From Candidatus Woesearchaeota archaeon (GTDB lineage: Archaea > Nanobdellota > Nanobdellia > Woesearchaeales > ARS49): DNA of 64,000 nucleotides. Of the stretch, positions 4,938 to 46,989 are shown one piece after another; within the stretch, counting starts at the first letter, position 1; the number at the start of each line of letters is the position of its first letter. A program made the position numbers and the translations under genes. The notes under the pieces are model-generated. The model did not search any database, was not told the origin of the DNA, and worked only from the letters and a program-made list of their open reading frames with translations. The stretch spans positions 160,001 to 224,000 of the forward strand of contig JAWADY010000001.1 of assembly GCA_038891615.1 (NCBI GenBank), read 5' to 3'.

Positions 4938-5927
4938 TTATTTAATCAGCCTTGAAGCTTTTTCTCGCAAAAGCCTTATCCTGCTGGCAATGTCGTTTGT
5001 TGAGGTGTTTTGAACCTCAGGCGTCCATTCGCCAACTCCATTCTCAACCAGCTTTGCAGAATGTTCCATCCCTTGCCTCTCAAACTCGTATAGCTCTTTA
5101 ACAATGCGCACAATTTCATCTGCTTGTTGGAACCTCTTTTTGAAATCCTCAAAACTTCCAAACTTGTTGTATTCTTGAACGAAAAGCCCGAGTTGTTCAG
5201 AATAAACCTTAGCTGCTAGCAAAAGCTCAGTATATTTGGCTAGCAACCCTTCAACAGCTCCGGCTCTAGCTTTATAGAATGCAAGTTTTGAAATTGCGAA
5301 CTCGGCATCATTTATGCGTTCCTTTGAAAAAGTATCCAGCCGTCGAAGATTGCTTCTCAGTTCAAATACCTCATCAGCCAGTCCTGGAATGTTCTCGTTT
5401 ATTGGATTTTTCTCAAGCAACTTTTTTCTTTCAGAACATTTGTATTCTAACATTGTTTGCAACTCTTCTCCTTTTTTTTGGGAAAGCTCTGCGCTATGGA
5501 TGTTTATATAAACGGCTCTTTCCAAAGCATCAATTGACTTGTTATAAAGCTGAAGGGTTTCTGTTGCGTTTCGGCAAAGCTCCTCAAGGTTTTTTGAAAA
5601 GGTAGAATAAAGTTCCCTTTTTTCAGCAGCTCTTTTTGTCTCAACACGCCTGCTTACATTTTCTTTTATTTCAGCGGCTTTTTTCGGACTTACTGCTTTC
5701 AAAATAAAGAGTTGAATTTTTTCAAGCAAAGTGTAATCTTTTTCCAACGGCGTATTTCCCCTACAGATTATTTCATAGAATTGCTTAAAGCGTTCAGATG
5801 AAGTATTGATTTTATCGTCAGGCACAAGCCTTGAGATTTCTGGAATTTTGGTTACATAAGTATTTAGTAACTGGTTAACACACTCACAAATCTCCTTAAC
5901 ATCTCCATTCTGAGTGTATGTCGGCAT
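4938..5927 (-). CDS. hypothetical coiled-coil protein
   Basis: Long helical E/K/L-rich ORF; GGAGGTG ribosome-binding site before the ATG at 5927. Confidence 0.7.
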   Translation of the reverse strand: MPTYTQNGDVKEICECVNQLLNTYVTKIPEISRLVPDDKINTSSERFKQFYEIICRGNTPLEKDYTLLEKIQLFILKAVSPKKAAEIKENVSRRVETKRAAEKRELYSTFSKNLEELCRNATETLQLYNKSIDALERAVYINIHSAELSQKKGEELQTMLEYKCSERKKLLEKNPINENIPGLADEVFELRSNLRRLDTFSKERINDAEFAISKLAFYKARAGAVEGLLAKYTELLLAAKVYSEQLGLFVQEYNKFGSFEDFKKRFQQADEIVRIVKELYEFERQGMEHSAKLVENGVGEWTPEVQNTSTNDIASRIRLLREKASRLIK

Positions 5928-5969
5928 GACACGCACCTCCTTTTATTTAAATTGAGCTTCTCATGAACC

Positions 5970-6314
5970 TTACTTGTTTTGGGTTAGCAGGTTCACAATC
6001 TCTTGCTCGGTGAACTCGCGCTTCTTTAACACAAACTCCTTTTCACGAACCAGATCGTCAAGTGATTTTTTCACATCCTCTCTAAACTCTAGCGCCTTTG
6101 CATAAATTTTGTTCATGTCATCATAGCTTTTGTTTGCTATGCGCTCAATTTCAATATTTTTAATCTGCTCGCAGTGCGCATAACCTTTTCTAAAACCGAT
6201 GAGTTGTCCTTTGTCAATTCCTTTGCCGTAATATAAGCACCCACCAACACCAAAACCTATCCCTCCATAAAAAGCAAGTCTTGCCAAAAACCCAACAAAT
6301 TGAGCTATTGCCAC
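5970..6314 (-). CDS. hypothetical protein with N-terminal Gly-rich membrane helix and coiled coil
   Basis: LAFYGGIGFGVGGCLYYG hydrophobic segment; AAGGAGGTG RBS before a GTG start. Confidence 0.7.
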   Translation of the reverse strand: MAIAQFVGFLARLAFYGGIGFGVGGCLYYGKGIDKGQLIGFRKGYAHCEQIKNIEIERIANKSYDDMNKIYAKALEFREDVKKSLDDLVREKEFVLKKREFTEQEIVNLLTQNK

Positions 6315-6495
6315 TTGTCACACCTCCTTTGAGATTGTCATTAAATTTTTTAATTTGTTGATTATTGCTTATGAAGCAGTTTTAATATTACTTACTGAGA
6401 GAAATTCGGAAAATGTTCGAATTAAACAAAATTTTTACCTAATGGATATAACTTTTTTGTTAGAAATGCAAACAAGAAAAAAACTTCCACAACAC

Positions 6496-6807
6496 TTATC
6501 GTTTTCCCAAGTCTGTTTTTGGGTTTTCCATAGGGTCAAGAGAATAGTGCTTAGATTTTTCAACAGATACGCTTGGGTCAAGTTGTGTAAGTGCTTTCTC
6601 CAGCTCTGAAAAGCTATTTTCAGATATATCCTTTGTTGATTTTCCAACAATCCAGTCTTTTAATTTTTCAGAATCAAAATAAGAGACTGTAAGACCACGC
6701 TTCTCAAGCTCTGCAGTAATGCTTTCTCTCAGGCCTCTAATGTTTGCGTTGTAATGTATCTTCAAATATTGTTCGCGCTGTTCTTCAAAAATGTCTTGTT
6801 CTGCCAT
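6496..6807 (-). CDS. hypothetical protein
   Basis: Start directly abuts the subtilase stop (translational coupling). Confidence 0.65.
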   Translation of the reverse strand: MAEQDIFEEQREQYLKIHYNANIRGLRESITAELEKRGLTVSYFDSEKLKDWIVGKSTKDISENSFSELEKALTQLDPSVSVEKSKHYSLDPMENPKTDLGKR

Positions 6808-8136
6808 TTAATCCACCAAGAGCTTAATCATCTTTTTAAAAATTTTGTATCCAATCACTTCACTGTGCTCTTCGGAGAGCGTTTGTGCAATCCCTACGGC
6901 AATGTCTGCCCTCACAAGGCCAGCACCATATTTTTCTTTTCTAAAGAATTCACCGGCACCAAGCGGAAGGCAACTATCTTTCAATAATTGCTCATAATAC
7001 TCTGGTCTTAAGCCCGGCTTCAAGCTTATAAGTAGCGCTCCAACACCTGCAGCGAGAGGAGCTGACATTGATGTTCCAGAATACTTTGCATAACGATTTG
7101 CAGGAATTGAAGATAAAATATCAACACCTGGAGCAGACAAATCGACACTTTCATCAATGTTACTGAATTCAGCATGTTTGTTTTCACTATCAACAGCCGC
7201 AACAGAAATCACTCCTTGATAAGCTGCAGGATAGCTTTTGCCCCAGCCAAAATTTCCTGATGCGGCAAAAACAAGGATGCCTCTTAAAACTGCTTCCTTA
7301 ATGATTTCTTCTTCAAGTTCTGAATACAAGGTAGAACCTATCGACATAGACATCACATTAACCTTTTTATTAATTCCCCATTCAATGGCACGAACAATAT
7401 CCACCTCGCTACCATAGCCATAACTGTTAAGGACTTTTGCTGAATAAAGGTCACAAAGAGTTGCGACGCCTGTATTTAAACCAGCCAATAGACCCGTGAC
7501 ATGCGTTCCGTGACCATTATCATCAAAAGGGTCATTGCTGTTATGTACAAAGTTATACCCCTTTTCAGGCTTGGCGAAGAGCTTGCACAACTCCTTATGG
7601 TTATAGTCAACCCCAGTATCAAGCACAAGCACTTTCGTTCCTTCCCCTTTTGTTACCTTCTGAGCTTCCTTTGCACCAATCTGCTCAAGATGACCAAAGC
7701 TGTTTGGTGATGAAAGCTCTTGTTTTGAAAAGCGCTCTGATAAAAGCAGTTCTGGAAGGAAAAAATTGTAAGCAAGCCTTGCATCAAAGCCCTTAGAGCA
7801 AAGCCTGTCGCGAATTTCTACAGCCTCTACCGCAGGCACCTGCATTGCTGCATAACCAATGCTTGAAAAGCAATAAAGCTGAAAACCAAATTCTTTTGCT
7901 AAAGAAGATACAAGCTCGTCGAGGCATTGGCCTCTTCCAACTTTTATTATAACTTCATGGAACTTTCTTCTCTTGTTTATTGCAGAATCAAGGATCTGCT
8001 TTCGTGCTTCTATTCCAAGCTGTTCTACAGGAATCCCAAGCTCTTTTGCTACAAACTTGTAAAGCTCAGAAAGCTCTGAAAAAAAAGATTTAAATTCCTC
8101 TCCAAGCCCTCTTTTTAGTTCATCAAAAACAGACAT
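6808..8136 (-). CDS. S8 (subtilisin-like) serine peptidase without an obvious signal peptide
   Basis: VLDTGVD, HGTHVTG and GTSMSAP catalytic triad motifs; AASGN oxyanion-hole motif. Confidence 0.95.
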   Translation of the reverse strand: MSVFDELKRGLGEEFKSFFSELSELYKFVAKELGIPVEQLGIEARKQILDSAINKRRKFHEVIIKVGRGQCLDELVSSLAKEFGFQLYCFSSIGYAAMQVPAVEAVEIRDRLCSKGFDARLAYNFFLPELLLSERFSKQELSSPNSFGHLEQIGAKEAQKVTKGEGTKVLVLDTGVDYNHKELCKLFAKPEKGYNFVHNSNDPFDDNGHGTHVTGLLAGLNTGVATLCDLYSAKVLNSYGYGSEVDIVRAIEWGINKKVNVMSMSIGSTLYSELEEEIIKEAVLRGILVFAASGNFGWGKSYPAAYQGVISVAAVDSENKHAEFSNIDESVDLSAPGVDILSSIPANRYAKYSGTSMSAPLAAGVGALLISLKPGLRPEYYEQLLKDSCLPLGAGEFFRKEKYGAGLVRADIAVGIAQTLSEEHSEVIGYKIFKKMIKLLVD

Positions 8137-10043: not shown

Positions 10044-11105
10044 ATGCCTCCAAGAGATAAGAAGCCAATCGCGGACTATCTTAAATATTTTTTCCTCGCT
10101 CTCTTCTTCTTTGTCATTTATATTACTTATCTTTTTGTTAAGCCATTTATTGTCACAACTGTGTCTGGAGCACTGATAGCATTTGCCTTTTATCCTTTGT
10201 ACAAGTGGCTGCACAGAAAAATAACAAGCAAGTCAATTTCTGCATTAATTGTTTCACTTATCATTCTCCTTTTAATGCTTTTACCTGTAGTGCTTCTGGC
10301 AGATGATGTTGCCAAGGAATCAAGATTCATATACCTCCGGGTTAAACAGCGCCTTGCTTCTGAAAACGTACTTGGCCTAAAGTGCGATACTGATGAAGGG
10401 CTCCTTTGTTCTCTAAATCGTCTCCTTGGAGAGCCTGAAGTAAAAGCGTACGTGCAAGAAATAATAGGAAAGGGTGCAAGCTATGTTGTCATAAATATGT
10501 CGAAGCTTATCCTTTCACTGCCGCAGATATTTTTGCAGCTTTTTGTGCTATTTTTTGTTGTCTTTTATTTCTTGGTTGAAGGAGATGTTTTTATTGAAAA
10601 GCTTAAAAAAATTTTGCCATTGGCAAGACATCATAGAGAGCAAATTTTTGAAAAGATAAGTTCAATGACTTCTGCTGTGTTGTATGGAAGCATAGTTGTC
10701 GCGCTATTACAAGGTCTACTTGGGGGAATTGGTTTTCTTATCTTTAAAGCAGGCTCACCAATAATCTGGGGACTTGTAATGACAATATTTTCACTAGTTC
10801 CATTTGTTGGAACAGCAGCAATTTGGGTCCCTGCTGGAATAAATCTTATAGTCTCTGGCAATCAAGCAAATGGAATTGGCTTGCTAATCTATGGTACACT
10901 TATTATTTCGTCACTAGATAACTTGCTAAGACCAAAACTGATAGGGGGCAAGGCAAAAGTTCATCCGGTGCTTGTGCTGCTAGGTGCGCTTGGCGGTATA
11001 GCATTCATAGGTCCTGTTGGTTTCTTGATAGGCCCAATTGTTACTGCGCTGCTTAAGGCATTTGTTGACATTTACGAGACAGAACACGTAGCGGGTCATA
11101 TGTAA
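10044..11105 (+). CDS. AI-2E family (PerM/UPF0118) transporter
   Basis: Multiple TM segments; DNLLRPKLIG, HP.LVLLG.LGG, G.LIGP motifs. Confidence 0.92.
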   Translation: MPPRDKKPIADYLKYFFLALFFFVIYITYLFVKPFIVTTVSGALIAFAFYPLYKWLHRKITSKSISALIVSLIILLLMLLPVVLLADDVAKESRFIYLRVKQRLASENVLGLKCDTDEGLLCSLNRLLGEPEVKAYVQEIIGKGASYVVINMSKLILSLPQIFLQLFVLFFVVFYFLVEGDVFIEKLKKILPLARHHREQIFEKISSMTSAVLYGSIVVALLQGLLGGIGFLIFKAGSPIIWGLVMTIFSLVPFVGTAAIWVPAGINLIVSGNQANGIGLLIYGTLIISSLDNLLRPKLIGGKAKVHPVLVLLGALGGIAFIGPVGFLIGPIVTALLKAFVDIYETEHVAGHM

Positions 11106-11136
11106 GTCTGAAGAAGAAAGCCAGCAAAGATATAAA

Positions 11137-12630
11137 ATGAAACTTATTGTAAAGGATATGGACATAGCAACTGGTGGAACGCAGATAGTAATCCTAAATA
11201 AGGCTGATGCAGAAGCACTTGACCTACATCCAATGGACAGACTTCTTGTTAGAAAGGGAAATAAGAAGACCATAAGTGTCCTTGACATTGCTGAAAGTGA
11301 AAAGGCTGTTCCAAGAGGGAAAATTGGTCTTTTTGAAGAAGTGCTGGATGCGCTAGGCGCTGTTGAAGGAGACATTGTTCAAATATCTTTTGAAAAAAAG
11401 CCAGAATCTGTTGGTTATATAAAAGAGAAACTTGATGGGAAAGAATTGAGCTATGATAAAATATACGAAATAGTAAAGGACATTGTAGATAATAAGCTTA
11501 CCGACATTGAACTTAGCAGCTATATAACTGCGAATTATACAAGAGGGATGACTACAAAAGAGATTGTCGCACTTACAAAGGCGATGATTGCAACCGGTTC
11601 TGTGCTGAAACTAAAAGAAAGACCAATTGTTGACCTACATTCAATAGGCGGCGTACCAGGCAACAGGACAACGCTAATAGTTGTACCGATTCTTGTAGCT
11701 GCAGGCTTGAAAGTTCCAAAGACATCAAGCAGGGCAATAACATCTCCTGCAGGAACAGCAGATACGATGGAGGTTTTTTGTAATGTCATGTTGCCAATGA
11801 AAAAGCTGGAGCAGATTGTAAAGAAGGTTGGAGGTTTTATTGTGTGGGGAGGCTCTGTTAACCTTGCGCCGGCAGACGATAGGATAATAAAGGTTGAATA
11901 TCCCCTTGCGCTTGATGCAGAAGGTCAAATGCTTGCATCAATATTGGCAAAAAAGCTTTCAGTGAATGCAACAAACCTTCTTGTTGAAATTCCGGTTGGA
12001 AAGGGCGCAAAGGTTGAAAGCTTAGAGAGGGCCTTGCATCTTAAGCATCATTTTGAACTTCTGTCAAAAGAGCTTTGGATTTCAACAAAGGTCATGATAA
12101 CAGATGGTTCTCAGCCGGTTGGAAGAGGGATAGGACCTGCTCTTGAGGCAAGAGATTGCCTTTGGGTGCTGATGAATGACCCTCGCGGGCCAAAAGACCT
12201 AAAACAAAAATCTATCGAAATGGCTGGCGAGCTACTTGAATTTTCAGGTAAGGTAGCAAAAGGAAAGGGAAAAGAATTTGCAGCAACGCTTCTTGAAAAT
12301 GGAAGTGCTTACAAAAAATTTTCCGAAATAATATCAGCACAGGAAGGAAAGCTCACATTGCCTGACGATATACTTCTGGGCAACAATGTGTATGAGGTTC
12401 GGTCAGAAACGAAGGGAATTGTCAAAAGGATCGAAAATGCTGTTGTGACAAAGATAGCAAGGCTGGCTGGCGCGCCAATTGACAAGAGGGCAGGTTTATA
12501 TCTTCACAAAAAGTCAGGAGAATCGGTTTCAAAAGGTGAGATTTTGTTTACAATTTACGCAGAAAGTGCGGAAAAGCTTAAATATGCTGTTGATGTTGCA
12601 AAAAAGATGCCTGCATTTGTTATCGAATAA
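11137..12630 (+). CDS. AMP phosphorylase (thymidine phosphorylase family)
   Basis: N-terminal beta-barrel, HSIGGVPGN, KTSSRAITSPAGTADTME, QPVGRGIGPALEA. Confidence 0.93.
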   Translation: MKLIVKDMDIATGGTQIVILNKADAEALDLHPMDRLLVRKGNKKTISVLDIAESEKAVPRGKIGLFEEVLDALGAVEGDIVQISFEKKPESVGYIKEKLDGKELSYDKIYEIVKDIVDNKLTDIELSSYITANYTRGMTTKEIVALTKAMIATGSVLKLKERPIVDLHSIGGVPGNRTTLIVVPILVAAGLKVPKTSSRAITSPAGTADTMEVFCNVMLPMKKLEQIVKKVGGFIVWGGSVNLAPADDRIIKVEYPLALDAEGQMLASILAKKLSVNATNLLVEIPVGKGAKVESLERALHLKHHFELLSKELWISTKVMITDGSQPVGRGIGPALEARDCLWVLMNDPRGPKDLKQKSIEMAGELLEFSGKVAKGKGKEFAATLLENGSAYKKFSEIISAQEGKLTLPDDILLGNNVYEVRSETKGIVKRIENAVVTKIARLAGAPIDKRAGLYLHKKSGESVSKGEILFTIYAESAEKLKYAVDVAKKMPAFVIE

Positions 12631-12673
12631 AAAAGAAAAATAAAAAATTTGTAGGACTTAAAAAGGGGTTAGT

Positions 12674-13129
12674 GTGGCAAGAATTTTCGGCTACGAAATA
12701 ACAGATACAGACAAGGCATACCTGCTCATACTAGTTTATTTTGTAGGAGTTATACTTATATGGCGAGGGATATGGGAAATAAATGACCGCATTCCAATTC
12801 TTAAAAGCCCTTATGTCTCACTCTTTTTGGGACTTCTTATTCTGACACTTACGGGTTACATATTTAGAGAATTTGACCCACTAGCACAACGGCTCAATAG
12901 ACTAACAAGGATAGTTCATACAGTTGTTAGCGACATAAAGCGGGGAGCTCTTGCGACAATACATTATTATGATGAGGTGCACAAGAAGCACAAAAAAATT
13001 GACCCAAAATCAATAATGCGGGTAGAGCATGGTTATATCGTTACAAAAGACAAATGTGGTGAACACTTTGTCCCAATGCACAGGGTGACCAGGATACACC
13101 ACAAAGGCAAAATCATTTGGCGCAAATAG
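12674..13129 (+). CDS. two-TM membrane protein with C-terminal MJ1316/DUF504-like domain
   Basis: Two TM helices; C-terminal VPMHRVTRI...GKIIW resembles the DUF504 IP.HR.......G...W motif. Confidence 0.55.
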   Translation: MARIFGYEITDTDKAYLLILVYFVGVILIWRGIWEINDRIPILKSPYVSLFLGLLILTLTGYIFREFDPLAQRLNRLTRIVHTVVSDIKRGALATIHYYDEVHKKHKKIDPKSIMRVEHGYIVTKDKCGEHFVPMHRVTRIHHKGKIIWRK

Positions 13130-13342
13130 TCACAAGACAAAATTCTATTAAAATTAAGCAAGAATTAGATTGAGATAGCAATCTAGCAATCAAATGTTAG
13201 CCATAATCGCTGTTCTGCGTACTGGAAGAAGGAAATGGCTGAAAAGCGAAAAACGATGAACTTAGGTTTTTCGCTAAACAAGCATCGCTAACTTTACAAC
13301 TTAGAGCTAGAGAGACTTATCTGTTCAAACTGTAATGATTCA

Positions 13343-14626
13343 TTATGAAAAACTGTTTAATGATGTTTGAGAATCCGAGAAAATGGCTTTTTGATTGCTT
13401 TTACTAGTTTGTTCTTTCGAAACTCTGATTTGAATAGCGTCAAGGATTGGTTTTCCATATTCACCATCAAAGCCAGGTTTAAAAGTAATCCTTTGCTCAC
13501 GGTTGGCAAGAATTGCATTGACGATTTTCTCGTCAACAAGAGCCGTAAGTTCCTCTGGTCTGGCGCTGATTAAAACTGCAAACTCTGTACCAAAGCGCTC
13601 AATGAGTTTGTTGTAAATTTGCCAAACCTTTTTGGAATAAACAGCAGAGCCCATAATTCCTGCAATTAGCTCAGATAAGGGGATTAGCTTCTTATAGTCA
13701 GCTGCACCATCTGGCTTGTAGCCTTCAGGTCTGTCTGCAAGCTCTTCGACTCTGTGCGCGACTCCAATTGTGACTGGTTTGGCGCATTTTGGACAAATCT
13801 TTTTGAGTGCGGCCGTTTCTTTAGGTGAAAGACAGACTCCACAATTCCTGTGACCATCATAGTGATACTTTCCTTCTTCTGGAAAGAATTCGATAGTTTC
13901 TATAACTTTTTTGCAGCGAATCGCCTTAATAAGCTCATCATAACTTATCTCATTAACATCAAAAACAGTCACCTCGCGACCTATTCTCCATGGCCAATAG
14001 CTGTGGCTGTCGGAGAAAGAGAGGATAGAAACGTTGTCAAGCTGTGAGATCCTCCAATTCATTGCAGGATCAGAACTCAAGCCCGTCTCGATGGCATGTA
14101 TATCTTTTGTTCTATCCTCAAAGCATTCCTTTAATGAGTCAAATCCCGACATTGAGCCAAAAAGGCTAAACCACGGGGTCCAGGCATGAGCTGGAATTAT
14201 CTCAATCCTATCATCAATTTCCTTCATTAGCTCAACAAAGCTTGGACAAGAAATGCCAAACATTGGTCTCCCATCATAATCAAGCCTTCCTTTCTTCGAT
14301 AATTGGACATTTATTTCTTCAACTACTCTAAAACTTGGAGCAAGAACGATGTTATGAATGCGCCTGCCCTTTCCCTTCTGGTTATAGATAAGTGAAATTT
14401 CGGTTTGAAGAACAAAAGGCATACCAGACTTTGTCCTTAGAATGCCATTTTCTTCGACAAGACTTTCTTTGAGCTCTTTAAGCCAGAGGGGGTGAGTAAA
14501 ATCGCCAGTGCCCAATAGCCCTATTCCTTTAATTCTTGCCCATTTTTCAAGATTAGGAATGGTCAAATCTTTGCTTGTTGCCCTTGCATATCTTCCATGA
14601 ATGTGTAAGTCAGCTACGAGTCTCAT
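13343..14626 (-). CDS. endonuclease Q family protein (PHP domain + Zn finger)
   Basis: DLHIH, GTGDFTHP, PAHAWTPW, ETGLSSD, SDSHS, GKYHYDGHRNC, CPKC, PGFDGEYG. Confidence 0.93.
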   Translation of the reverse strand: MRLVADLHIHGRYARATSKDLTIPNLEKWARIKGIGLLGTGDFTHPLWLKELKESLVEENGILRTKSGMPFVLQTEISLIYNQKGKGRRIHNIVLAPSFRVVEEINVQLSKKGRLDYDGRPMFGISCPSFVELMKEIDDRIEIIPAHAWTPWFSLFGSMSGFDSLKECFEDRTKDIHAIETGLSSDPAMNWRISQLDNVSILSFSDSHSYWPWRIGREVTVFDVNEISYDELIKAIRCKKVIETIEFFPEEGKYHYDGHRNCGVCLSPKETAALKKICPKCAKPVTIGVAHRVEELADRPEGYKPDGAADYKKLIPLSELIAGIMGSAVYSKKVWQIYNKLIERFGTEFAVLISARPEELTALVDEKIVNAILANREQRITFKPGFDGEYGKPILDAIQIRVSKEQTSKSNQKAIFSDSQTSLNSFS

Positions 14627-29436: not shown

Positions 29437-30888
29437 ATGCAAAAAAAGAGCGTACTTCTCGGATTTGTTTCAGTAACCCTTCTGACACTTTTAGCGAGCA
29501 TTGCTTTGGCATCTTTTGAATTTAATGTTGATGTAGCTCCTGAAGGAGCAGTCATAAAAATGAATGACAGTGCAGAGTTCACTCTAAGCGTTAGTCACAA
29601 TTCGCGAAATGTCGAATCTTTTGAAATATACTCTCCAGAAGTACAGTGGGATATACGAACAGAACCGCCAGGGCTATTAAAAGTTGCTCCAGGTGAAAAG
29701 GGAGAAACAAAACTTGTAATAAGGCCAGTATACATATCAAACCCAGGCTACTATTATGTTGTTATTCATGTGAGACCAATCGGCCGCGACATTCTTGTCA
29801 GAAAAGCTTTTGTGGTTGGAGTTCTACCAGCCTATCAAATACCTGGAGAGTATTCGCCTTCAATAAAGCTTTCCCCGAGCGTTGAAAAACTAATAGACCC
29901 AAGGGCTGAAAGCGTTGTGAAATTAACAGTAGAAAACCTGAACAGACGTGAGCTTGGTCAAATCGCAATCAGGCTTAGAAGCAATACAATAAATAAAGAT
30001 ATCTCATCATCACTTGGGCCTTTCGAGAGGAAATCATTTGATTTTAAAGTCTTTTTAGACCCACTAACTCCCCCACAGAAGGATGTGTTGACCGCCACCG
30101 TTTTCCTGCAACTGCCAGAAGGAACATATCAAATTGAGGCGGAACCTATCCCGTTTGAAATTTTGGCTTATGGCGAAATAACCGAGCAAACAGATGTCTC
30201 AAAGGGATTCTTAAAAACAACTAAAACAATCACATTTACCAATACAGGCAACTCACGTCAGAAAAAGGAATTTCTAGAGAAAAAGGCATTTTTCAAAAGT
30301 TGGTTTACTTCTTTCAATGAAGACTATGACAGAATTAAGGTCGTAGACAGGACTAATTACTACTCATGGAATATTGAGCTTGGTGTTGGCGAAAAGAAAG
30401 TTTTGATAATTACAACAAACTATAACCCACCTGCTTATCTCGCACTTGCTGTAATTGCTGGACTGCTCTTGTATTACCTTTTAAGGAGTCCTCTTGTATT
30501 AGTAAAATCAGCAACAATCCTAACCGCGCGTGAGGGCGGAGTATCTGAGTTCAAGATTCTGTTGAGGGTAAAAAACAGAAGTTCGAGAGCGCTGAAAAAT
30601 GTTTCAATACTTGACAGCATTCCAAGAATCGCAGATATTGTTCGCGACTTTGAGCTTGGAACCACAAAGCCTGAAAAAATATTAAGACACGAAAGCCGCG
30701 GCACAATGTTGAAGTGGCGTTTCAGCGAACTTGAACCATCTGAAGAAAGGCTCATAACGTATAGGATTTCTTCAAAGCTAAACATAATAGGCGGTGTCAC
30801 ATTGCCGGTTGCTGTTGCAAAGTTTGAGGTAAGAGATGGTGTTGAGCGAGTTACAAGAAGCAATGCGCCAGTTGTTGGGCTGATGTAA
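29437..30888 (+). CDS. secreted/membrane Ig-like multidomain protein
   Basis: Signal peptide, beta-rich repeats, internal TM (YLALAVIAGLLLYYLL), then a further beta-sandwich domain. Confidence 0.7.
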   Translation: MQKKSVLLGFVSVTLLTLLASIALASFEFNVDVAPEGAVIKMNDSAEFTLSVSHNSRNVESFEIYSPEVQWDIRTEPPGLLKVAPGEKGETKLVIRPVYISNPGYYYVVIHVRPIGRDILVRKAFVVGVLPAYQIPGEYSPSIKLSPSVEKLIDPRAESVVKLTVENLNRRELGQIAIRLRSNTINKDISSSLGPFERKSFDFKVFLDPLTPPQKDVLTATVFLQLPEGTYQIEAEPIPFEILAYGEITEQTDVSKGFLKTTKTITFTNTGNSRQKKEFLEKKAFFKSWFTSFNEDYDRIKVVDRTNYYSWNIELGVGEKKVLIITTNYNPPAYLALAVIAGLLLYYLLRSPLVLVKSATILTAREGGVSEFKILLRVKNRSSRALKNVSILDSIPRIADIVRDFELGTTKPEKILRHESRGTMLKWRFSELEPSEERLITYRISSKLNIIGGVTLPVAVAKFEVRDGVERVTRSNAPVVGLM

Positions 30889-37829: not shown

Positions 37830-37958
37830 GATCCTGATAAAGAAATCTAGGTTGAATTTTGCCCAAACTTGATGAGAACCTTTACGATATGTATACGGAA
37901 CATCATAAAATCCTCTGTCAACAGACTTAATCCAAGCATCTATTTTTTGTGCATATTC
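37830..37958 (-). pseudogene. fragment resembling the C-terminal nuclease region of a type III restriction Res subunit
   Basis: Start-less frame [43 protein letters not shown] directly after hsdR. Confidence 0.55.
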
Positions 37959-40900
37959 ACACAGTAACTAAATTTCCAGCAACTAACTCTGCTTGTTTTA
38001 AAACGGTTTCTGTTGCTTTTTTTTCTTTATCAGGCGGATAGCCATATTTTCTCAGTATTTTCTTTACTTTGAGGCGCAACTCTGCTTGAACACTTTCTCT
38101 TTGTGTCCAGTCTATTGTAACACTTTTTCTTATCATTTGTGTTAGTTCGAGTGCTATTTTTCTTAAGGTTTCGTCACCAAGTATTTTAACTGCGCTATCA
38201 TTGGCTTCAAGTGCATCATAAAATGCAAGTTCATCTTCACTCATTCCAAGCTCTTTTCCCCTGTTTTTTTCTTCTCTAACTTTTCGTGCTAACTCTATTA
38301 ATTCTTCTACAGCTTGCGCAGCCTCTATAGTCCTATTTGTATATTTCTTTATTGTTTTATCCAGCATCTCCATGAAAGATTTGCCTCGAACAAGGTTTCT
38401 TTTTGAAATTATTTTAATCTCATCATTCAATAATTTTTTAAGAGCTTCAAACGCGAGGTTTTTCTGAGGCATATCTCTTACTTCAGCTAGAAAACGCTCT
38501 GATAAAATTGAAAGTTCTGGTTTTTTAATTCCAGCAGCCTCAAATATATCTATAATTCTATCAGAGATTACTGCCTTTGAAATAATCTGTTTGATTGCTG
38601 TTTCATATTCTTCTATTACATCTTTTTTGGTTTCGAGTTTTTTTGACATTGTTAATTTTAATGTCTGAAAAAAGCCAACTTCTTCCTTAATCTTCATGGC
38701 TTTTTCATGAGGAAATGACAAAGATAATGCTTTTACAAGAGCTGTTGCTTCTTTTCTAAATCTTTCTTTTTTCCCTGGCTCTTTTAGTATGTATTCCATT
38801 GCATTTAGCATGAAAGGAAATTTTTCTTTTGGCGAAAGCTCGAAAAATTTCTTGTAATTAAAACCATAAAACATATCTTTAACTATCTCATATTTTTCTA
38901 ACATTAATTTGACAGCCTCTTCTTGGTCCAATATTGGCTTTCCTTTACCGCCACTTAGTGTATAATCCATAAGTGCTTTTTTAAGTTCAGCTCCAACACC
39001 CATATAGTCGACAATCAGACCACCTTCCTTTCCAGGATAAACCCGATTCACTCTTGCTATTGCCTGCATTAGAGTATGACCTTTTATTGGCTTATCAAGA
39101 TACATTGTATGCAGAGATGGCGCATCGAACCCTGTCAAGAACATATCTCTTACGATAAGGAGTTTGATTTCATGTTTTGGGTCCCTAAAATTATCCCCTA
39201 TTCTCTTTCTTCTTTCTTTGTTTCTTATATGCTGCTGCCATTCTTTCGGGTCAGAAGCAGAGCCTGTTATTACGACTTTAATAAATCCTTTATCATCGTC
39301 ATCATTATGCCACTCTGGCCTTAGTTTTATTATCTCGTTATAAAGGTCAATGCATATTCTTCTCGACATACAAACAATCATTCCTTTTCCATCAAGGACA
39401 GAAAGCCTTTGCTCAAAATGATTTACAATGTCTTCTGCAATCCTTCTTATTCTTTTAGGAGCGCCCGCAACCTTTTCAAGACTTGCCCATTTACTTTTAA
39501 GTTTTTCTTTATGCTCTACCTCTTCGCCTTCTGTTACCTCCTCGAACTCTGGATCAATCTTTGGTCTTTCTTCTGGTTTTAACTCCAGCTTTGCTAATCT
39601 GCTTTCGTAAAATATTCCTACAGTAGCACCATCATTAATAGCTTGTTCAATATCATAAATATCAACATATTTTCCAAATACAGCAGGGGTTGATCTATCC
39701 TCTTTTTCTATTGGCGTTCCAGTAAAGCCAATGAATGACGCATTGGGCAAAGCATCTCTTAAGTACTTTGCATAACCATATGTTATAAGCACCTTATCTT
39801 CTTTTTTCAGTATTCTTGCAGGAAAACCATATTGGCTTCTATGAGCTTCATCCGCTATTACAATAATATTGTCTCGCTCTGATAGAGTAGGATACTTTTC
39901 TCTATCATCTTTTGTTTCTGGAAAGAATTTTTGTATAGTAGTAAAAATAATTCCGCCAGAAGCAACTTTAAGTAATTCCATCAGTTCTTTTCTTGTGCTT
40001 GCTTGAACTGGTTCTTGTCTTAATATGTCTTGACACTTGATAAAAGTTCCAAATAATTGGTCATCAAGGTCATTTCTGTCTGTAAGAACAACAATCGTAG
40101 GATTATCCAGTTGTCTAATAATTTTTCCAGCGTAAAAAATCATTGTCAAACTTTTTCCAGAACCCTGAGTGTGCCACACAATACCTGCCTTTTTATTTGT
40201 CCTTCTTGCCTGCAAGGTTGATTCTACTGCTTTATTTGCAGCCCAATACTGGTGATATGCTGCTAATTTCTTTTTTGTTTCTTTATCTTTTTCAAAAACA
40301 ATAAAGTTTCTTACGATATCTAAAAGCTTGTCTTTGTCAAGCATGCCTCTAAGCAAGATTTCTATTTCTGATAGCCCTTTCATCGGTTTTTCTCCTTCTA
40401 TTGTTTTCCACTGCATAAACCTCTCTGGCTCAGAAGTAATCGTGCCTGCTCTTGCATCCATGCCATCGCTAATAACTAAAATTTCGTTATATTTGAACAA
40501 AGAAGGTATCTGTTCTTTATATGTTTGAAATTGATTATATGCTGTCCAGATTGTTGCATCTTTATCTGCAGGGTTTTTTAACTCTATAACAACCAAAGGC
40601 AAGCCATTAACAAACAACACAATATCTGGCCTTCTTTCAGCATTGTTTTCTATTACTGTAAACTGGTTGACTGCAAGAAAATCATTATTTTTTATATCTT
40701 CAAAATCGAACAAATTAATCAAAACGTGCCTTTCTTCACCTGCTTTTGCTATAGGAATGCTGATACCATCTGTAAGCATCCTATGAAAGGTTTCATTGTC
40801 AACAAGCAACTTTTGGCTTCCTATTCTCAAGACTTCCTTTATAGCCTGCTCTCTCACCTCTTCTGAAACCTGCGGATTAATCCTTCTCAAAGCTTCTCTT

Positions 40901-41061
40901 AATCTATCAACAAGCACAACATCTTCATATCTCTGCCTTAGAGCATATTTTCCACCTGGTAAGTAATCCTCATTATTTCCCCTGATTACTTCATAGCCAA
41001 GGCTGCCCAAAACTGACAAAGCAAATTCTTCAACATCCGATTCATGGATTGCTTTTATCAT
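37957..41061 (-). CDS. hsdR: type I restriction endonuclease subunit R
   Basis: RPD..LFVNG...[41 protein letters not shown]. Confidence 0.98.
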
Positions 41062-41462
41062 TTCATCATCTTCTTAAATTTCAAGATTAAATTTTTCAAT
41101 TGTTCCACAACAACCTCTGCTTCTTCCTTTTCAAGCTTTTTTCCATAATAATTTACAGCGTTTCTAGTTTTTCTTAAATTATCAAAAATGTCAGCTTCCC
41201 TAGATAAATTTAATATTTCTTTTAGAAAAGCTGTGTAGCATTCATGATTATAAATTTTGAATCCTTTTTTAATAGGCAATGCTTCTAAAATCTCCCTTAA
41301 TGAATCGTACAATAAAGAAATTTTGCTTATAAGAAATTCATCAGCCAAAGAATCAGTAGAGTTAAATTTTATTTCTGCTGTTTCTAATAAAGATATTATC
41401 ATATTTTTATCCTCTTTCGTCTCTTTTGCAATTCTTTGTTTTAAGCATTCTCTCCAGTCCAT
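41058..41462 (-). CDS. HEPN-domain protein (RxxxxY variant)
   Basis: [25 protein letters not shown]; coupled to the upstream MNT gene. Confidence 0.8.
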
Positions 41463-41463
41463 C

Positions 41464-41976
41464 TTACCAGTTCCCTTTTATTTTGAAACCATTTAATATA
41501 TTTTTAAGCAAATTTTCACTTTTTACATCTTCAATTCCTCTAAAAACAAAAATCTGTATTCTCCTTTTTAGCAATTTTTCAAATTTCTCAAGATTAATTT
41601 CTTTTTTCGTTGGTGTAAAAATTGCAAGATCAATATCAGAATCAATCTTTGCTTCTCCTTTTGACAAAGAGCCAAAAAGATAAACTATTGGAGTTAATAA
41701 ATTCTTTTCCAATTCTTTCAATAAGCCGGAATCTTCTAATATTTTTTTCCAATAAATTCTTGATAACTCTACGAAAAGCTCAGAATCCTTATTTACAAAA
41801 TAATAATTATAAATCTTCTCTTTTTCTTTTTTGAGCAAGCCTTCTTTATACAAGTTTTCAAGAATCTTTGAAGCTGTCGGCGGGCTTATTTTTTGAATTC
41901 TTGCATACTCGCGAACATTAATCCGACTATAGCAATCTTCAAAGAAAGGCTTCAAAGTGTTAAATATTTCTAACAT
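41464..41976 (-). CDS. HTH-minimal nucleotidyltransferase (MNT antitoxin-like)
   Basis: INVREYAR..KISPPTASK.L HTH; LFGSLSKGE...DSDIDL (GS-x10-DxD). Confidence 0.9.
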   Translation of the reverse strand: MLEIFNTLKPFFEDCYSRINVREYARIQKISPPTASKILENLYKEGLLKKEKEKIYNYYFVNKDSELFVELSRIYWKKILEDSGLLKELEKNLLTPIVYLFGSLSKGEAKIDSDIDLAIFTPTKKEINLEKFEKLLKRRIQIFVFRGIEDVKSENLLKNILNGFKIKGNW

Positions 41977-42081: not shown

Positions 42082-43461
42082 TTAAGCAGATTTTTTAATC
42101 TCCCTTTCCATCTCTTTTATCATCTCAGCAGGCACTCTAATTTTGCCAGACATAAGTTTAGGAAGGAGAGAATCGCGAAGTTGGGAGAAGGTGAGGGATT
42201 CTTTTAAGTTATTATAAATTCGATTATAGATAATAGTTAATATATTTTCAAAAATATCTAAAACTTTTTTTTCAGGTATTAAAATTTTTGTTGATTTAAT
42301 GTGATTTAAATTAATTATTGGCATAGTGCTTCCTGAAGATATTCTTTCCCAATATTTCTCTTCGGATAGTCTTTTAAGGAAGATAAATAAATAGAATCTT
42401 CCTATTTTGTTTTCGTCTATTGTTATTTTTGCTAAACGACTTACTATTACAGCCTTATCATAAATATCAGTCATAATCCCTAGTAATCCTAGAGTCCCCG
42501 TTTTTGATATAATTATATCTCCTTTTTTAACAGAACTCCTTTTAACTTCTTGAAATTTTTTTTCTGATATAAAATGCTTAAATGGCTTATATAAAGGATA
42601 ACCTTCCAAGTATTCCATTTCGATAATAGGAATTCCAGAATTTTGATATTCTGTTATTTTCATTTGTGTTCCGAATGGTCCATCGACTATTGAATTTTTC
42701 TCATCAGAGGATATATCTTCGATTTTCCCAACCCTCCACCCCTTAGGTATCTCTTTGCCGAGCTCTTCATTATAAACCATTTCTCCGCCAGAGCTTTTGT
42801 AAGGCTTACCCTCTTCATTCGGAAACTCAAAATCAACAAACCAGTGCTTGAAAATTGCCTGGCCAATTGCCTCAAGGGTTTTGTTCATTCGCTGGTTGAG
42901 TTCGATCTTATCATCAAATGCCGAAAGAACTTTAGCAATGGCGCGTTGCTCGGGGAGGGGCGGGATAGGAAGTTCTACATCCTTAAAAGTGTTTGTAGTT
43001 ATGGTTTCAAAAACAGTTCCATAAGATACAGATCTAATCTTATTTATCGAGTTTTTAATCGAATAATAGAGGTATATTACATCATATTCTTTTTTTGGTT
43101 GTAAACCATAACATGTCTGATTAAAAGTCATCGGCTCTGGTAATAATGCTATTGCACCGACAGTCCCTCTCGAAGTAATTACAATTGTATTTTTTGGATG
43201 GATTTTTGCATTGCTATTCTTTACTCCCTCTTCGGTTATTGTTCTTTCTGTAACTGTTACATATCGCGACTTAACATTTGCAATATCCCTTGCAGTTGCC
43301 CATTTAAATTTTCCATCCCAAAAATATTTAATTTCTGTTTTAGGGGTTCCCCCTAATGAAATATCGCATGTTTCACTAATAGATTTAACCTCCCAATCCT
43401 CAGGGATCATTCCGATTTCAGTTTGTTTGAATTTGGGTTTATTTTGGGTTTGAGGGTTCAT
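42082..43461 (-). CDS. hsdS: type I R-M specificity subunit
   Basis: FKQTEIG.IPEDW, PPLPEQ.AI, central conserved region to EIPKGW, LRDSLLPKLMSG; two TRDs. Confidence 0.96.
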   Translation of the reverse strand: MNPQTQNKPKFKQTEIGMIPEDWEVKSISETCDISLGGTPKTEIKYFWDGKFKWATARDIANVKSRYVTVTERTITEEGVKNSNAKIHPKNTIVITSRGTVGAIALLPEPMTFNQTCYGLQPKKEYDVIYLYYSIKNSINKIRSVSYGTVFETITTNTFKDVELPIPPLPEQRAIAKVLSAFDDKIELNQRMNKTLEAIGQAIFKHWFVDFEFPNEEGKPYKSSGGEMVYNEELGKEIPKGWRVGKIEDISSDEKNSIVDGPFGTQMKITEYQNSGIPIIEMEYLEGYPLYKPFKHFISEKKFQEVKRSSVKKGDIIISKTGTLGLLGIMTDIYDKAVIVSRLAKITIDENKIGRFYLFIFLKRLSEEKYWERISSGSTMPIINLNHIKSTKILIPEKKVLDIFENILTIIYNRIYNNLKESLTFSQLRDSLLPKLMSGKIRVPAEMIKEMEREIKKSA

Positions 43462-45031
43462 TTTTAACCACCATAAGTAATATACAGTTGTTATTGTTGT
43501 CTGGCACTTTGATAATCTCAATATTTGGCATTTTTGTCCTTTCTTGAAGTGATTTAACAATTGTTTTTATTCTATCATCATCAAACTTAGAAATAGGAAT
43601 AGGTTCAAATTGTTTTGTTTTTTCATTTGCACCAATGATATATACCTTTATATTAGACTCCTTCACCTTTTTACTAAGGTCGCTAGCAAAATAAGAAACT
43701 ATTTCATCGTTACTACCTGAAAAAACATCCGAAGATTTCAATTCTAGTATTTCGTTTTCAGTATTTACAAAACTAATGTCAAAAGTTGAATTTTCAAATA
43801 TCTTTTTAGATAGGCAATTTAAAAAATAACAAATAGGTTTATCTTCATTCTCTATGGCTAATAATTTTAAAATAGAGCCCAATAAAATACTATTAAATGA
43901 GTCTCTTATTTGCATTTTTTCATAATAATCTAAAAGTATTTTACTTAATTCTTTCTGTAGCTCGTTATAAATCTCCATGTTTTTTATTTTAATTGAGTTT
44001 GCGGATATTCTACAGCCTGCATGATAAACTCTGAAAGATTCGTTATTCAATAATTTAGTTTTAATTTCTTCTAAGAAACTTCCCCGAATTTCTATGCTAT
44101 TGTCTGAAAATAGTATTAGGAAGTTAGGATTTGTCTTTTTAATTATCACGTTGCCGTCTTGTTTTACAACATTATTCTTATCATCAAATATTTTTTCCTG
44201 ATATGGAATGATAGAATTTTTTAACTTTATGTATTCTTCATTATAATAACTCAGATTATATCGTTTTGCTAAAAAATCTTGTACAAAATCATCATAATTT
44301 GTATATGGCTTCCTACCAACTTTGACTAATGACAACGGTATTCTTTCTATCGGAGCAGGTAAAATTATTTGTTTGTCCTTGACCTTAAACGCTTTTTCTT
44401 CTATAAACTTTTTCTCGAAATCGTCATCACTTAATTCTAAAGAAAAAGGAACCCCGCTTACTTCACCACAAAATTTATTTTTACCGCCCAAATATTCAAA
44501 TGCCACTTTTTGAGGTATACCTAACCAGTTAGCAAAGAACACAGAAGGATTAGTTTCATAAAAAATAACATCAATACTATCTTTCTCATTTTTAAAGTAA
44601 ACAAATCTCAGGATATTATCTTTATCAAGCATTCTGTCTATAACCTCCCATTTGGGTGTAATGGTTTCCTCACCAAAGAGGCTATGACAAAGTATGACAA
44701 ATTCGGATGTGACTATACAAATCGCATATTTCTCTTCCATCCTCATTCTGGTGTTCATTTCGTCGCTAAAATCGTTAAGTAATTCTTTTGCGTCTCTGTC
44801 ATCTATTAAAGGATAAGAGGAAATCAAATTTTTAATCCAAATTTGACAATTCTCCTTTAATTGAATTTCATCAAATTTTTTTCTTTTACCTAAATTTAAT
44901 AACGAATTAACAACCTTCGTTATTTTATCTTTATCTACTTTTCTGGTTATTTTATCTTGGTTAATATCATTCTCAATTACTTTCTTTGAATATACGAATG
45001 TTGGCTCTCCCTTATTTTGATTTGTAATCAT
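43439..45031 (-). CDS. uncharacterised protein with C-terminal Schlafen/AlbA_2-like domain, inserted between hsdM and hsdS
   Basis: C-terminal ENEILELKSS...VYIIGANE...IEIIKV...ILLMVV; very AT-rich; coupled to both neighbours. Confidence 0.6.
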   Translation of the reverse strand: MITNQNKGEPTFVYSKKVIENDINQDKITRKVDKDKITKVVNSLLNLGKRKKFDEIQLKENCQIWIKNLISSYPLIDDRDAKELLNDFSDEMNTRMRMEEKYAICIVTSEFVILCHSLFGEETITPKWEVIDRMLDKDNILRFVYFKNEKDSIDVIFYETNPSVFFANWLGIPQKVAFEYLGGKNKFCGEVSGVPFSLELSDDDFEKKFIEEKAFKVKDKQIILPAPIERIPLSLVKVGRKPYTNYDDFVQDFLAKRYNLSYYNEEYIKLKNSIIPYQEKIFDDKNNVVKQDGNVIIKKTNPNFLILFSDNSIEIRGSFLEEIKTKLLNNESFRVYHAGCRISANSIKIKNMEIYNELQKELSKILLDYYEKMQIRDSFNSILLGSILKLLAIENEDKPICYFLNCLSKKIFENSTFDISFVNTENEILELKSSDVFSGSNDEIVSYFASDLSKKVKESNIKVYIIGANEKTKQFEPIPISKFDDDRIKTIVKSLQERTKMPNIEIIKVPDNNNNCILLMVVKNEPSNPK

Positions 45032-45033
45032 TA

Positions 45034-46557
45034 TTACACACTCCACCCCAGCATCTCCAAATTTCTTTTTATTTCTTCATCTAGCTTTTTGCTCTCTTCC
45101 ATTTGCTGTTTGAGTTCTGCTGTGAGTTTTTTCATTTTTTCTTCAAAAACTTCTTCTGGCTCTTCTTGTTCTTCAAAGCCGACATAACGGCCTGGTGTTA
45201 AAATGAAATTATTTTTTTCAACTTCTTGTAATGAAGCAGATTTGCAAAAACCAGGGATGTCTTTATATCCAAGTTTGTTTTCTCCTCTCCATGCATGGTA
45301 AGTATCGGCAATTTTCTTTATTTCATCATCAGTTAATTCTCTATGTCTTCTATCAATCATTACGCCCATTTTTCTGGCATCGATAAACAGAATCTTTCCT
45401 CGTCTATCTTTGAACTTGTTATCTTTTTTATCACGAGCAATAAACCATAAACAAGCTGGAATCATTGTGTTGTAGAACAGCTGCGATGGCAAAGCGACAA
45501 TACAATCTACGAGGTCTGCTTTGATAATATTTTTTCTTATTTCTCCTTCGTTAGAAGTCATTGAGCTTAAAGAGCCGTTAGCAAGAACAAAACCAGCAAT
45601 TCCTGTTGGTGATAAATGATGGATAAAATGCTGTACCCATGCAAAATTGGCATTTCCTTTTGGTGGAACACCAAACTTCCACCTAACATCTTCTTGTAAT
45701 AACTCGCCGCCCCAGTCTGAATCATTAAAAGGAGGATTTGCTAGGATAAAATCAGCCTTCAAATCCTTGAATTGGTCGTCATGAAAAGAATCACCCCACT
45801 TAATGTTTGCGTCAATTCTTCTTATCGCAAGGTTCATTTTGCACAGACGCCACGTTGTCTGGTTGCTTTCTTGACCATAAATTGAAATATCTCCAATCTT
45901 TCCACCATGAGCTTCAACAAATTTTTCTGATTGAACAAACATTCCTCCTGAACCACAACAAGGGTCAAATATTCTTCCTTTGTATGGTTCAAGCATTTCA
46001 ACAAGCAATTTTACAATGCATCTCGGTGTGTAGAACTGACCGCCTTTTTTGCCTTCTGCAGATGCAAATTGTCCAAGAAAATATTCGTAAACTCTTCCAA
46101 GAATGTCTTTGCTTTTGTTTTCTTTATCACCTAGCCCAATCGTGCCAATTAAATCTATTAGTTCTCCTAGGCGCTGCTTGCTTAATGCTGGCCTTGCATA
46201 AATCTTTGGGAGAACACCTTTTAATGAGGGATTATCCCTTTCGATATCCTCCATTGCATGGTCTATGAGTTCTCCAATTTCTGGCTTTTTTGCATTAGCC
46301 TGCAAATACTCCCATCGCGCTTCTTTTGGAACCCAGAAAACTCTTCTTGCAAGATATTCGTCAACATCTTCTGGATCAGCTTCTGGGTCTTTTTTTAATT
46401 CTTCATAAACTTCTTTAAAAGAGTCGGAAATGTATTTTAAGAATATTAAACCTAAAACAACATGCTTGTATTCTGCAGCATCCATATTGCTTCTCAACTT
46501 GTCTGCAGCCTGCCAGAGCTTCTCTTCGAAACCTAAATTCGCACTATTAGTTTTCAT
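45034..46557 (-). CDS. hsdM: type I R-M m6A methyltransferase subunit
   Basis: [34 protein letters not shown]. Confidence 0.98.
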
Positions 46558-46650
46558 CTTATTTCACCTTTTTTCTTTCTCGGAGTATTCCAATAAGGGC
46601 TTTTGCACTTAGGACATACTTTTGGCTCTTTGGTTGTTGAATCTGGGAGA
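46554..46650 (-). pseudogene. C-terminal half of a small Zn-ribbon protein (CPKCKSPYW)
   Basis: EPKVCPKCKSPYWNTPRKK ends in an ATGA overlap with hsdM; no first CxxC knuckle or credible start upstream. Confidence 0.5.
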
Positions 46651-46779
46651 GTTTCAGATAAAAATCTTTCTCTTGCTCGCAAGATTAGATGGGCTTTTAA
46701 AATGACCTTTAATATGAGCGTGGTAACAAAGTATAAATACAAAAGATTTATAAGGCTTAAAACAAAAAAGGTGAAAAAA

Positions 46780-46989
46780 ATGGCAAAAGAGACAAAGGAT
46801 AGGTTGTTGCGGGGCATTGTTGGAGCAGTTCTGCTTTTTTACTCGCTGCCAGGACTGTTCATTTCAGGCTTTTATGGCGGAATGATGATGGGCAGAATGT
46901 TTTTGGGAACAGGAGGCAGCTTTTTTGTTTCCATTCTGCTAGCACTAATTGGTGTTTGGCTGCTTTATGATGCTATAAAGCCACAGTAG
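46780..46989 (+). CDS. small two-TM protein with GGMMMG loop
   Basis: AGGTGA RBS; two hydrophobic helices. Confidence 0.65.
   Translation: MAKETKDRLLRGIVGAVLLFYSLPGLFISGFYGGMMMGRMFLGTGGSFFVSILLALIGVWLLYDAIKPQ

Follow-up and report, generated by a model that had tools for sequence, protein, structure and literature searches.

We analysed a stretch of 64,000 nucleotides from the genome of Candidatus Woesearchaeota archaeon (assembly GCA_038891615.1, contig JAWADY010000001.1, positions 160,001 to 224,000 of the forward strand), referred to below as the window, and concentrated on a gene of 530 codons, here called gene X, which lies within the operon of a type I restriction-modification (R-M) system. 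The genome comprises 661 kb, is 97.9% complete and carries gene X in a single copy. The genes form a single minus-strand operon in the order leader or mini open reading frame (mini-ORF), hsdM, X, hsdS, a nucleotidyltransferase gene (MNT), a HEPN-like gene and hsdR. The features of the operon and the parts of gene X are listed here.

46554–46817, minus strand: leader region with a possible mini-ORF (from translation; coding status uncertain)
45034–46557, minus strand: hsdM, type I methyltransferase subunit (Pfam N6_Mtase, 4.5e-115; HsdM_N, 5.1e-27)
43439–45031, minus strand: gene X, encoding a two-part protein of 530 amino acids, N-module plus probable Schlafen/AlbA_2-type nuclease (ORF, translation, relatives, AlphaFold2 (AF2) model)
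43769–45031, minus strand: N-module of X, residues 1–421, putative sensor or regulatory region (AF2 model, conservation, colinearity with the Asgard protein P0058)
43442–43768, minus strand: very probable C-terminal, divergent AlbA_2/Schlafen nuclease domain of X, residues 422–530 (Foldseek, profile against PDB, hhalign)
43736–43759, minus strand: predicted catalytic motif E425-x4-E430-x-K432 of X (alignment to SLFN13 and conservation)
43622–43624, minus strand: E470, putative third acidic residue of X (alignment to SLFN13 and conservation)
42082–43461, minus strand: hsdS, specificity subunit, its start overlapping the end of X (Pfam Methylase_S, 1.9e-43, in two stretches)
41464–41976, minus strand: winged helix-turn-helix plus nucleotidyltransferase, MNT (NTP_transf_2, 1.7e-9; PADLOC PDC-M05A, 1.4e-14; GC 27.9%)
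41058–41462, minus strand: HEPN-like partner of MNT (PADLOC PDC-M05B, 1.5e-7; GC 27.2%)
37957–41061, minus strand: hsdR, restriction/translocase subunit (Pfam HSDR_N, SWI2_SNF2, T1RH-like_C)

The open frame of gene X spans 43439–45046 on the minus strand. Its plausible start is the ATG at 45031, which lies 2 nt past the TAA stop codon of hsdM (45036–45034) and has a GGTGGAG stretch upstream. At the other end, the stop codon of X (43441–43439) falls 20 nt within hsdS, whose likely start is the ATG at 43461. The GC content of X is 28.4%, compared with 37.6% for hsdM, 33.7% for hsdS, 35.2% for hsdR and 39.2% for the window; it is 9 points under that of hsdM and resembles that of the HEPN–MNT pair (27–28%). 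A preliminary description of this DNA had reported an AT-rich gene of about 530 codons that begins 2 nt after hsdM and overlaps hsdS, and the ORF, its composition and its start and stop positions agree with that report. The HEPN–MNT pair between hsdS and hsdR (41058–41976) is a second, separate cargo set of the same operon. ARAGORN found no tRNA gene between positions 30000 and 55000 of the window.

Two modules of the gene X protein

The close relatives of X number 20 and are 515–560 amino acids long. The whole family comprises 166 representative clusters (50% identity) at E ≤ 1e-3, 131 at E ≤ 1e-10 and 78 at E ≤ 1e-30. When X alone was used as the query, no match was obtained in Pfam, NCBIfam, PADLOC or the PDB sequences, Pfam and PDB having been searched to E ≤ 10, and PADLOC applied to all 86 full-length members returned scattered single matches only. 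An AF2 model of the full protein, built from 20 sequences, had a predicted local distance difference test score (pLDDT) of 84.2 and terminated in a beta hairpin with strands E503–510 and E515–523. When this model was compared with the PDB by Foldseek, every match at a probability of 0.97–1.00 was a Schlafen or SAMD9 chain. The best match was SLFN13 (5yd0_B; E 2e-3, probability 1.00), and further ones were SLFN11, SLFN14, SLFN5, SLFN12, the SAMD9 DNA-binding domain and the SAMD9 tRNase domain (9o0d_D), with E from 2e-3 to 7e-2; the root-mean-square deviation was 3–5 Å for the best of them.

Profile comparisons led to the same family. A profile of the 86 full-length members, run against the PDB sequences, had SLFN13 (5yd0_A, E 0.049) as its top match, and in this alignment E425, E430, K432, G467 and E470 of X were in register with SLFN13 residues. 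Once the numbering is corrected for an offset of 13 residues in the crystallised construct, E425/E430/E470 correspond to E205/E210/D248 of rat SLFN13, the acidic triad reported as essential there (PMC5862951). For an independent comparison, 30 domains that the Pfam model had found in genomes of the same phylum were made into an AlbA_2 profile. The X family aligned to it by hhalign with E 7.7e-5 over 83 columns, with the motifs in the same register; a comparison with one single AlbA_2 protein was uninformative. A hidden Markov model (HMM) of the same 30 domains scored above 5 bits in 9 of the 86 members, versus 0/86 and 1/86 for shuffled and reversed copies. The support that these sequence comparisons give to a profile-level kinship of the C-terminus of X to AlbA_2 domains is modest.

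The site itself is well kept. Among the 86 full-length relatives, E425 is found in 82, E430 in 83, and K432 and G467 in all 86, and position 470 is E or D in 81. The strict motif Ex4(E/D)xK occurs within the last 150 residues in 77 of the 92 full-length relatives of at least 480 amino acids; 13 further ones, as read by eye, have a variant form (other spacing, or E/Q) that ends with E-[FY]-K, and two are without the motif. It is highly probable, as judged from the alignments and the model, that residues 422–530 form a divergent Schlafen/AlbA_2 nuclease domain, predicted to be catalytically competent. The preliminary description had proposed such a domain from E-x4-E-x-K-S-S, hhIG and a terminal beta hairpin. 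Both motifs are present in the translation (E425-x4-E430-x-K432-S-S and YIIG467) and the hairpin in the AF2 model, and the SLFN/SAMD9 fold matches, the SLFN13 profile match, the hhalign result and the conserved site all speak for it. A second internal Schlafen lobe at residues 281–418 was also considered and dropped; the N-module searched alone yields no Schlafen match.

The N-terminal part of about 420 residues, the N-module, was modelled with high confidence (residues 1–418 with 86 sequences: pLDDT 92.9, predicted template modelling score, pTM, 0.82). In fold searches against PDB and BFVD it gave no match at E ≤ 1e-3, and there was no Pfam, NCBIfam or PADLOC match to it either. The ESM Atlas returned no usable feature match for residues 1–280, the Atlas model itself being poor (pTM 0.30). 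The module is better conserved than the nuclease, the mean identity to X being 40% over residues 101–215 and 32% over the nuclease domain. Its most constant positions (of 86 members) are H116 (84), N139 (83), N356 (82), H337 (80) and D283 (acidic in 86), followed by R133 and D136 (76 each), E159 (74) and K299 (73). Such conserved polar residues suggest a ligand-binding or catalytic pocket. As for a PD-(D/E)xK reading of them, a look by eye only revealed no ExK element.

The limit between the two parts can be seen in P0058, a protein of 738 amino acids from the Asgard archaeon Promethearchaeum syntrophicum (DSAG12_00611). Its residues 13–423 are colinear with residues 9–421 of X (33% identity, E 1e-72, two gaps), and where X has the nuclease it carries a PRTase-CE domain (PF24390, E 1.5e-46), which in several type III-A retron groups is listed as the most frequent of the accessory domains (PMC13712802). 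At the level of sequence, this alignment shows a module boundary of X at about residue 421. P0058 carries the same N-module together with PRTase-CE, and the N-module therefore behaves as a unit that turns up joined to different effectors of the defence type. A module joined to interchangeable effectors in this way is, as far as protein sequences can tell, the signature of a sensor or regulator.

Genomic neighbourhoods and transfer of gene X

Homologues of X were examined in 36 records: the window, 6 from species genomes, 23 from metagenomes, 3 from a sample of 401 genomes of the phylum, and 3 archaeal plasmids. After near-identical copies had been collapsed, 27 distinct loci remained, those from the genome sample and the plasmids being called distinct by their much lower identity to X and not by mutual alignment. 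Type I genes were identified by tblastn with the Hsd proteins of the window and by ORF maps. At 12 of the 27 loci X was part of a type I operon and co-oriented with its genes, always in the slot between hsdM and hsdS (12/12). The order hsdM–X–hsdS was complete in nine of them (the window, L005, L007, L008, L018, L020, L023, L034 and L035); L021 and L024 show X–hsdS–hsdR with the upstream side cut, and L028 shows hsdM–X with the downstream side cut. In none of the 12 operons did X lie between hsdS and hsdR, a site that other cargo occupies in the window, L024 and L034. At two more loci (L001 and L004), type I genes are nearby on the strand opposite to X.

Four loci belong to other methylase-based systems. 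At L026/L010, a methylase gene with Eco57I and TaqI_C domains is followed by a gene for a 420-residue protein without assignment and then by X. On the Thermococcus profundus plasmid NZ_CP014863.1 (L108, 7865–18411), the X homologue (601 amino acids) begins 7 nt after an Eco57I/MmeI-type methylase gene, and the R-M-like operon continues beyond it with a 207-residue unannotated protein, an AbiEii-family gene and a PLD-SNF2 helicase-nuclease. At L013 and L015, divergent DUF499 and DUF1156-methylase genes lie near X, a composition that we take to be that of an Hma system.

At seven loci (L002, L003, L011, L025, L036, the DL31 megaplasmid and an Actinarchaeum plasmid) no recognised R-M gene was seen in the available flanks, as judged by tblastn plus Pfam or deposited annotation of some of the neighbours only. 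Genes found there include an HNH gene and an integrase gene (L011), a gene for an 1815-residue, STAND-like ATPase_2 protein (L025) and recombinase genes (Actinarchaeum plasmid). On the plasmid of the halophilic archaeon DL31 (CP002989.1; L107, 6125–12668), a canonical AlbA_2 gene (E 4.1e-18) comes next after the X homologue, and DUF262 and DUF2081 genes and an ISH6 transposase gene are close by; the region has the look of a defence island that lacks type I genes. L027 and L029 were too short to judge. Of the 25 informative loci, 18 were in or beside R-M-type systems (12 embedded in type I operons, 2 beside type I genes and 4 with other methylases), in agreement with the enrichment at R-M loci that the preliminary description led us to look for.

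Within the phylum the gene is rare and patchy: it was present in 4 of the 401 sampled genomes and in 0 of the 28 from the same family. A tblastn search of a phage collection with X gave no match. The X proteins of L034 and L035 are 87% identical, whereas the HsdM, HsdR and HsdS proteins of these two operons share 31%, 27% and 25% identity; X has thus moved across type I operons that are unrelated, arriving in the same slot. Their DNA is 78.7% identical over 1717 nt, a stretch that starts at the first codon of X and stops some 58 nt within hsdS, and nothing else notable is shared. Judged from this alignment, the transfer of X brought the first codons of hsdS along. Over the seven complete operons, the identities of HsdM and HsdR co-vary (Spearman 0.65), while X against HsdM gives a rho of -0.09.

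Three of the operons have peculiarities of their own. In L005 (uncultured archaeon, 5116–7917), hsdM and X are separated by two genes, a canonical AlbA_2+HTH gene and one for a RiboL-PSP HEPN protein, so that this operon holds two Schlafen-type genes. Its hsdM consists of two overlapping ORFs (5116–5685 and 5673–6641), which suggests a frameshift. The HsdM protein of L035 (9656–12064, minus strand) has 802 residues; its Pfam domains stop at about residue 450, and a C-terminal extension of about 350 residues has no family match. L034, from a DPANN archaeon, carries three extra genes (281, 163 and 387 codons) between hsdS and hsdR (11010–13719).

Interpretation and rival explanations

What was observed (the identity of the domain, the conservation of its site, the modular boundary, the linkage to other genes and mobility) makes us lean towards the view that gene X is a self-contained sensor-effector cassette in a single protein, serving defence in the manner of prokaryotic Schlafens (pSlfn); the RNase activity, latency, trigger and defence phenotype of X are what we infer. 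The C-terminal residues, about 105 in number, would act as a divergent AlbA_2/Schlafen endonuclease whose metal-binding site, Ex4ExK plus an acidic residue, is intact. Going by Schlafens already characterised, the nuclease would most likely cleave tRNA or other RNA and so halt translation in the infected cell. The N-module of about 420 residues would be a sensor or regulator that keeps the nuclease silent until a trigger is encountered. The cassette would be mobile and would favour the site directly downstream of an N6-adenine methyltransferase gene, in type I systems always between hsdM and hsdS, so that X may be expressed along with the methylase genes and back up restriction as a further layer. 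Prokaryotic Schlafens joined to sensors of various kinds are reported to defend against phage and to cut tRNA (Perez Taboada et al., Nat Microbiol 2026, PMC13056530). According to that paper, they occur in 55 annotated domain compositions, 17.2% being fused to unannotated domains (558 clusters), and RorSlfn5 with an Ig-like sensor and EcoSlfn7 with DUF262 are among the examples; a related known group is the CRISPR-associated Schlafen 'Cash' (PMC13462974). X resembles them in combining, in one protein, a Schlafen-type nuclease with Ex4(E/D)xK and a separate putative sensor, and also in its linkage to defence islands and its patchy distribution. It differs in that its nuclease is C-terminal and escapes the Pfam model with which those authors classified, in that the partner module is 420 residues long without a Pfam or PDB match, in the mostly archaeal range of the family and in the fixed slot in type I operons.

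Several observations weigh against this interpretation. Pfam SLFN_AlbA_2 (PF04326) found no match in X or anywhere in the genome at E ≤ 10, and it reached E ≤ 0.01 in only 2 of the 86 family members (best 0.0027). The Foldseek matches to Schlafens are local, covering about 125 columns with a template modelling (TM) score of 0.25–0.36 by target, and none reached E ≤ 1e-3; the hhalign probability for the AlbA_2 match was only 62%. The conservation of the N-module is unlike that of fast-evolving sensors of phage proteins and would suit a cellular partner or ligand that is itself conserved. Autonomy alone leaves the strict hsdM–hsdS slot (12/12) unexplained, and the fixed slot and the conserved N-module together favour some functional tie to the methylase. 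A further possibility, which we hold to be rather unlikely, is that the N-module is a portable 'plug-in' sensor, of a fold new to the PDB, for a feature shared by restriction machines built on N6-adenine methyltransferases (type I and Eco57I/MmeI-type) or for their target DNA. With its interchangeable effectors (Schlafen in most members, PRTase-CE in an Asgard archaeon), it would be a generic restriction guard that moves between unrelated R-M systems.

Another possibility is a guard like PrrC, in which case X would be bound and held inactive by the type I methylase/restriction complex and would fire when a viral anti-restriction factor disables that complex. For PrrC itself, in the EcoprrI type IC locus, such physical control by the R-M complex is documented (PMC3632139), whereas for X it is hypothetical. 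The two are alike as effector genes embedded in a type I R-M operon and as a possible second line of defence, with the RNA target and latency of X presumed. PrrC, however, consists of an ABC-ATPase and a HEPN anticodon nuclease and is located between hsdS and hsdR, whereas X lies between hsdM and hsdS and has neither domain by Pfam, NCBIfam or PADLOC. Three things speak for such a guard: the constant type I slot, with stop and start codons that overlap or nearly abut; the place of X immediately behind Eco57I/MmeI-type methylase genes in systems of two further kinds; and the conservation of the N-module, which is like that of a partner-binding unit. The type I genes on the opposite strand in L001 and L004 speak against it. 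As X is portable between unrelated operons, with 87% identical copies beside Hsd proteins of 25–31% identity, as seven loci lack an R-M gene in the available flanks, and as an effector-swapped form exists in P0058, an autonomous cassette fits better than a partner fitted to a single R-M complex, and a PrrC-like guard has become an unlikely explanation. A complex prediction for HsdM (residues 8–470) and X (residues 8–530) had a score of 0.00 and was uninformative either way. We regard it as very improbable that X, in place of being a suicide effector with RNase activity, is a nuclease directed at DNA, or a non-catalytic accessory of the R-M system that binds nucleic acids and serves restriction, specificity or regulation. 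AlbA_2 domains also bind DNA, the SAMD9 DNA-binding domain in complex with DNA (7ksp_A) is among the fold matches of X, and X sits between the methylase and specificity genes; on the other hand, the acidic triad needed for the RNase activity of Schlafens is kept in 81–83 of the 86 members, characterised prokaryotic Schlafens cleave tRNA (PMC13056530), and X occurs without R-M genes and has its counterpart with PRTase-CE.

The remaining explanation concerns the N-module as a YejK- or KwaB-like DNA-binding unit, a clamp that would report the state of DNA (foreign DNA, breaks, or loss of the nucleoid as in PANGU) and activate the nuclease. YejK-like sensors with separate toxins are described in a preprint (10.64898/2026.04.06.716658), and the preliminary description had itself noted a weak likeness to YejK/NdpA in the segment ending in SVFFANWLGI (residues 163–172, present in the translation). 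The only PDB fold match of the N-module above a probability of 0.5 was KwaB (9mtn_B; E 0.081, probability 0.57, 171 columns), and the kinetochore chain 7qoo_L of CCAN also appeared, with a probability of 0.13. The N-domain of YejK is reported to resemble RdgC and CENP-N weakly (PMC11229321), and these faint matches are for that reason compatible with a YejK-like fold. The KwaB match, however, had TM scores of 0.19/0.24, and YejK (9BE2) was outside the 50 best Foldseek matches of the N-module. The Pfam models of NA37 (PF04245) and KwaB (PF16162) each had no match in the genome at E ≤ 10 and were found in 0 of the 86 members at E ≤ 0.01. In hhalign, E was 0.13 (Prob 0.4%) for the X family and an NA37 profile of 20 sequences, and 0.34 for the X family and nine KwaB proteins (KwaB/DUF4868); NA37 and KwaB HMMs scored no better on the X family than on shuffled sequences. 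The NA37 profile was made from diverse proteins of Bacteroidota genomes, a homologue search with YejK having given only enterobacterial proteins of more than 80% identity. The suggested YejK likeness was not reproduced, and we consider a DNA clamp of this type improbable.

The autonomous Schlafen cassette that we favour also has parallels among genes nested in defence operons. 'Guilt-by-embedding' (Payne et al., 10.1101/2024.01.29.577857) describes defence genes that lie within other systems, namely type I, BREX, DISARM and Hma, and TgvAB in a type I cluster of Vibrio cholerae is a tested example of embedded defence (PMC11411939). The HEPN–MNT pair of the present operon is cargo of this sort and matches the PDC-M05A/B models; X, in contrast, matches no PADLOC-DB v2 model and so lies, as far as the models show, outside the catalogued embedded candidates. 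With eukaryotic Schlafens and SAMD9 (SLFN13 5yd0, SLFN11, SLFN14, 9o0d), X shares the catalytic-lobe fold and the acidic triad, but it is single-lobed where their core is two-lobed, and it lacks a helicase or other eukaryotic domains. A literature search on Schlafen/AlbA_2, type I restriction and embedded genes found no description of the X architecture in its listings. The preliminary description had called the effector new. As to its kind this goes too far, since sensor-Schlafen proteins (PMC13056530) and genes embedded in type I operons (10.1101/2024.01.29.577857) are already in print. X is thus a cryptic addition to the known prokaryotic Schlafen defence proteins, with a 420-residue module previously undescribed.

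With X, a sizeable and mostly archaeal family (166 clusters at 50% identity) joins the recently recognised prokaryotic Schlafens, and because standard domain models miss it, published Schlafen censuses may undercount. The N-module, which has a confident predicted structure, carries nine polar residues that are conserved and is paired with two or more alternative effectors, is a concrete target in the search for a new trigger-sensing mechanism. The strict hsdM–hsdS slot, combined with transfer between unrelated operons, makes X a clean case for studying how defence cargo chooses its slot and whether restriction in archaea is 'guarded'.

Small frames and source assemblies

Upstream of hsdM, an 87-codon frame (46554–46817) terminates in KVCPKCKSPYWNTPRKK, with a zinc-ribbon-like motif, CPKC...W..PR, at its end. 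Its product may be a small zinc-ribbon regulator, to judge from this motif; the hydrophobic first half of the frame, overlapping a TATA-like AT-rich sequence, may be non-coding. In archaeon HR04 (L001, 7655–7801, plus strand), a mini-ORF of about 48 codons with LCEGYGHIW...CPKCKDLCWNIPRR ends directly before X. A regular-expression search for CPxC...W..PR mini-ORFs matched the window alone, the L001 version being slightly different.

Two database proteins, P0005 (316 amino acids) and P0022 (219 amino acids), are 100% identical to residues 1–316 and 312–530 of X and come from contigs of 41.8 and 26 kb; the full 530-residue form on record is P0291. Another public assembly of the source organism is apparently broken within X. 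The listing of sequencing runs comprised six DNA holders, from hot-spring metagenomes, and no RNA holder among them.

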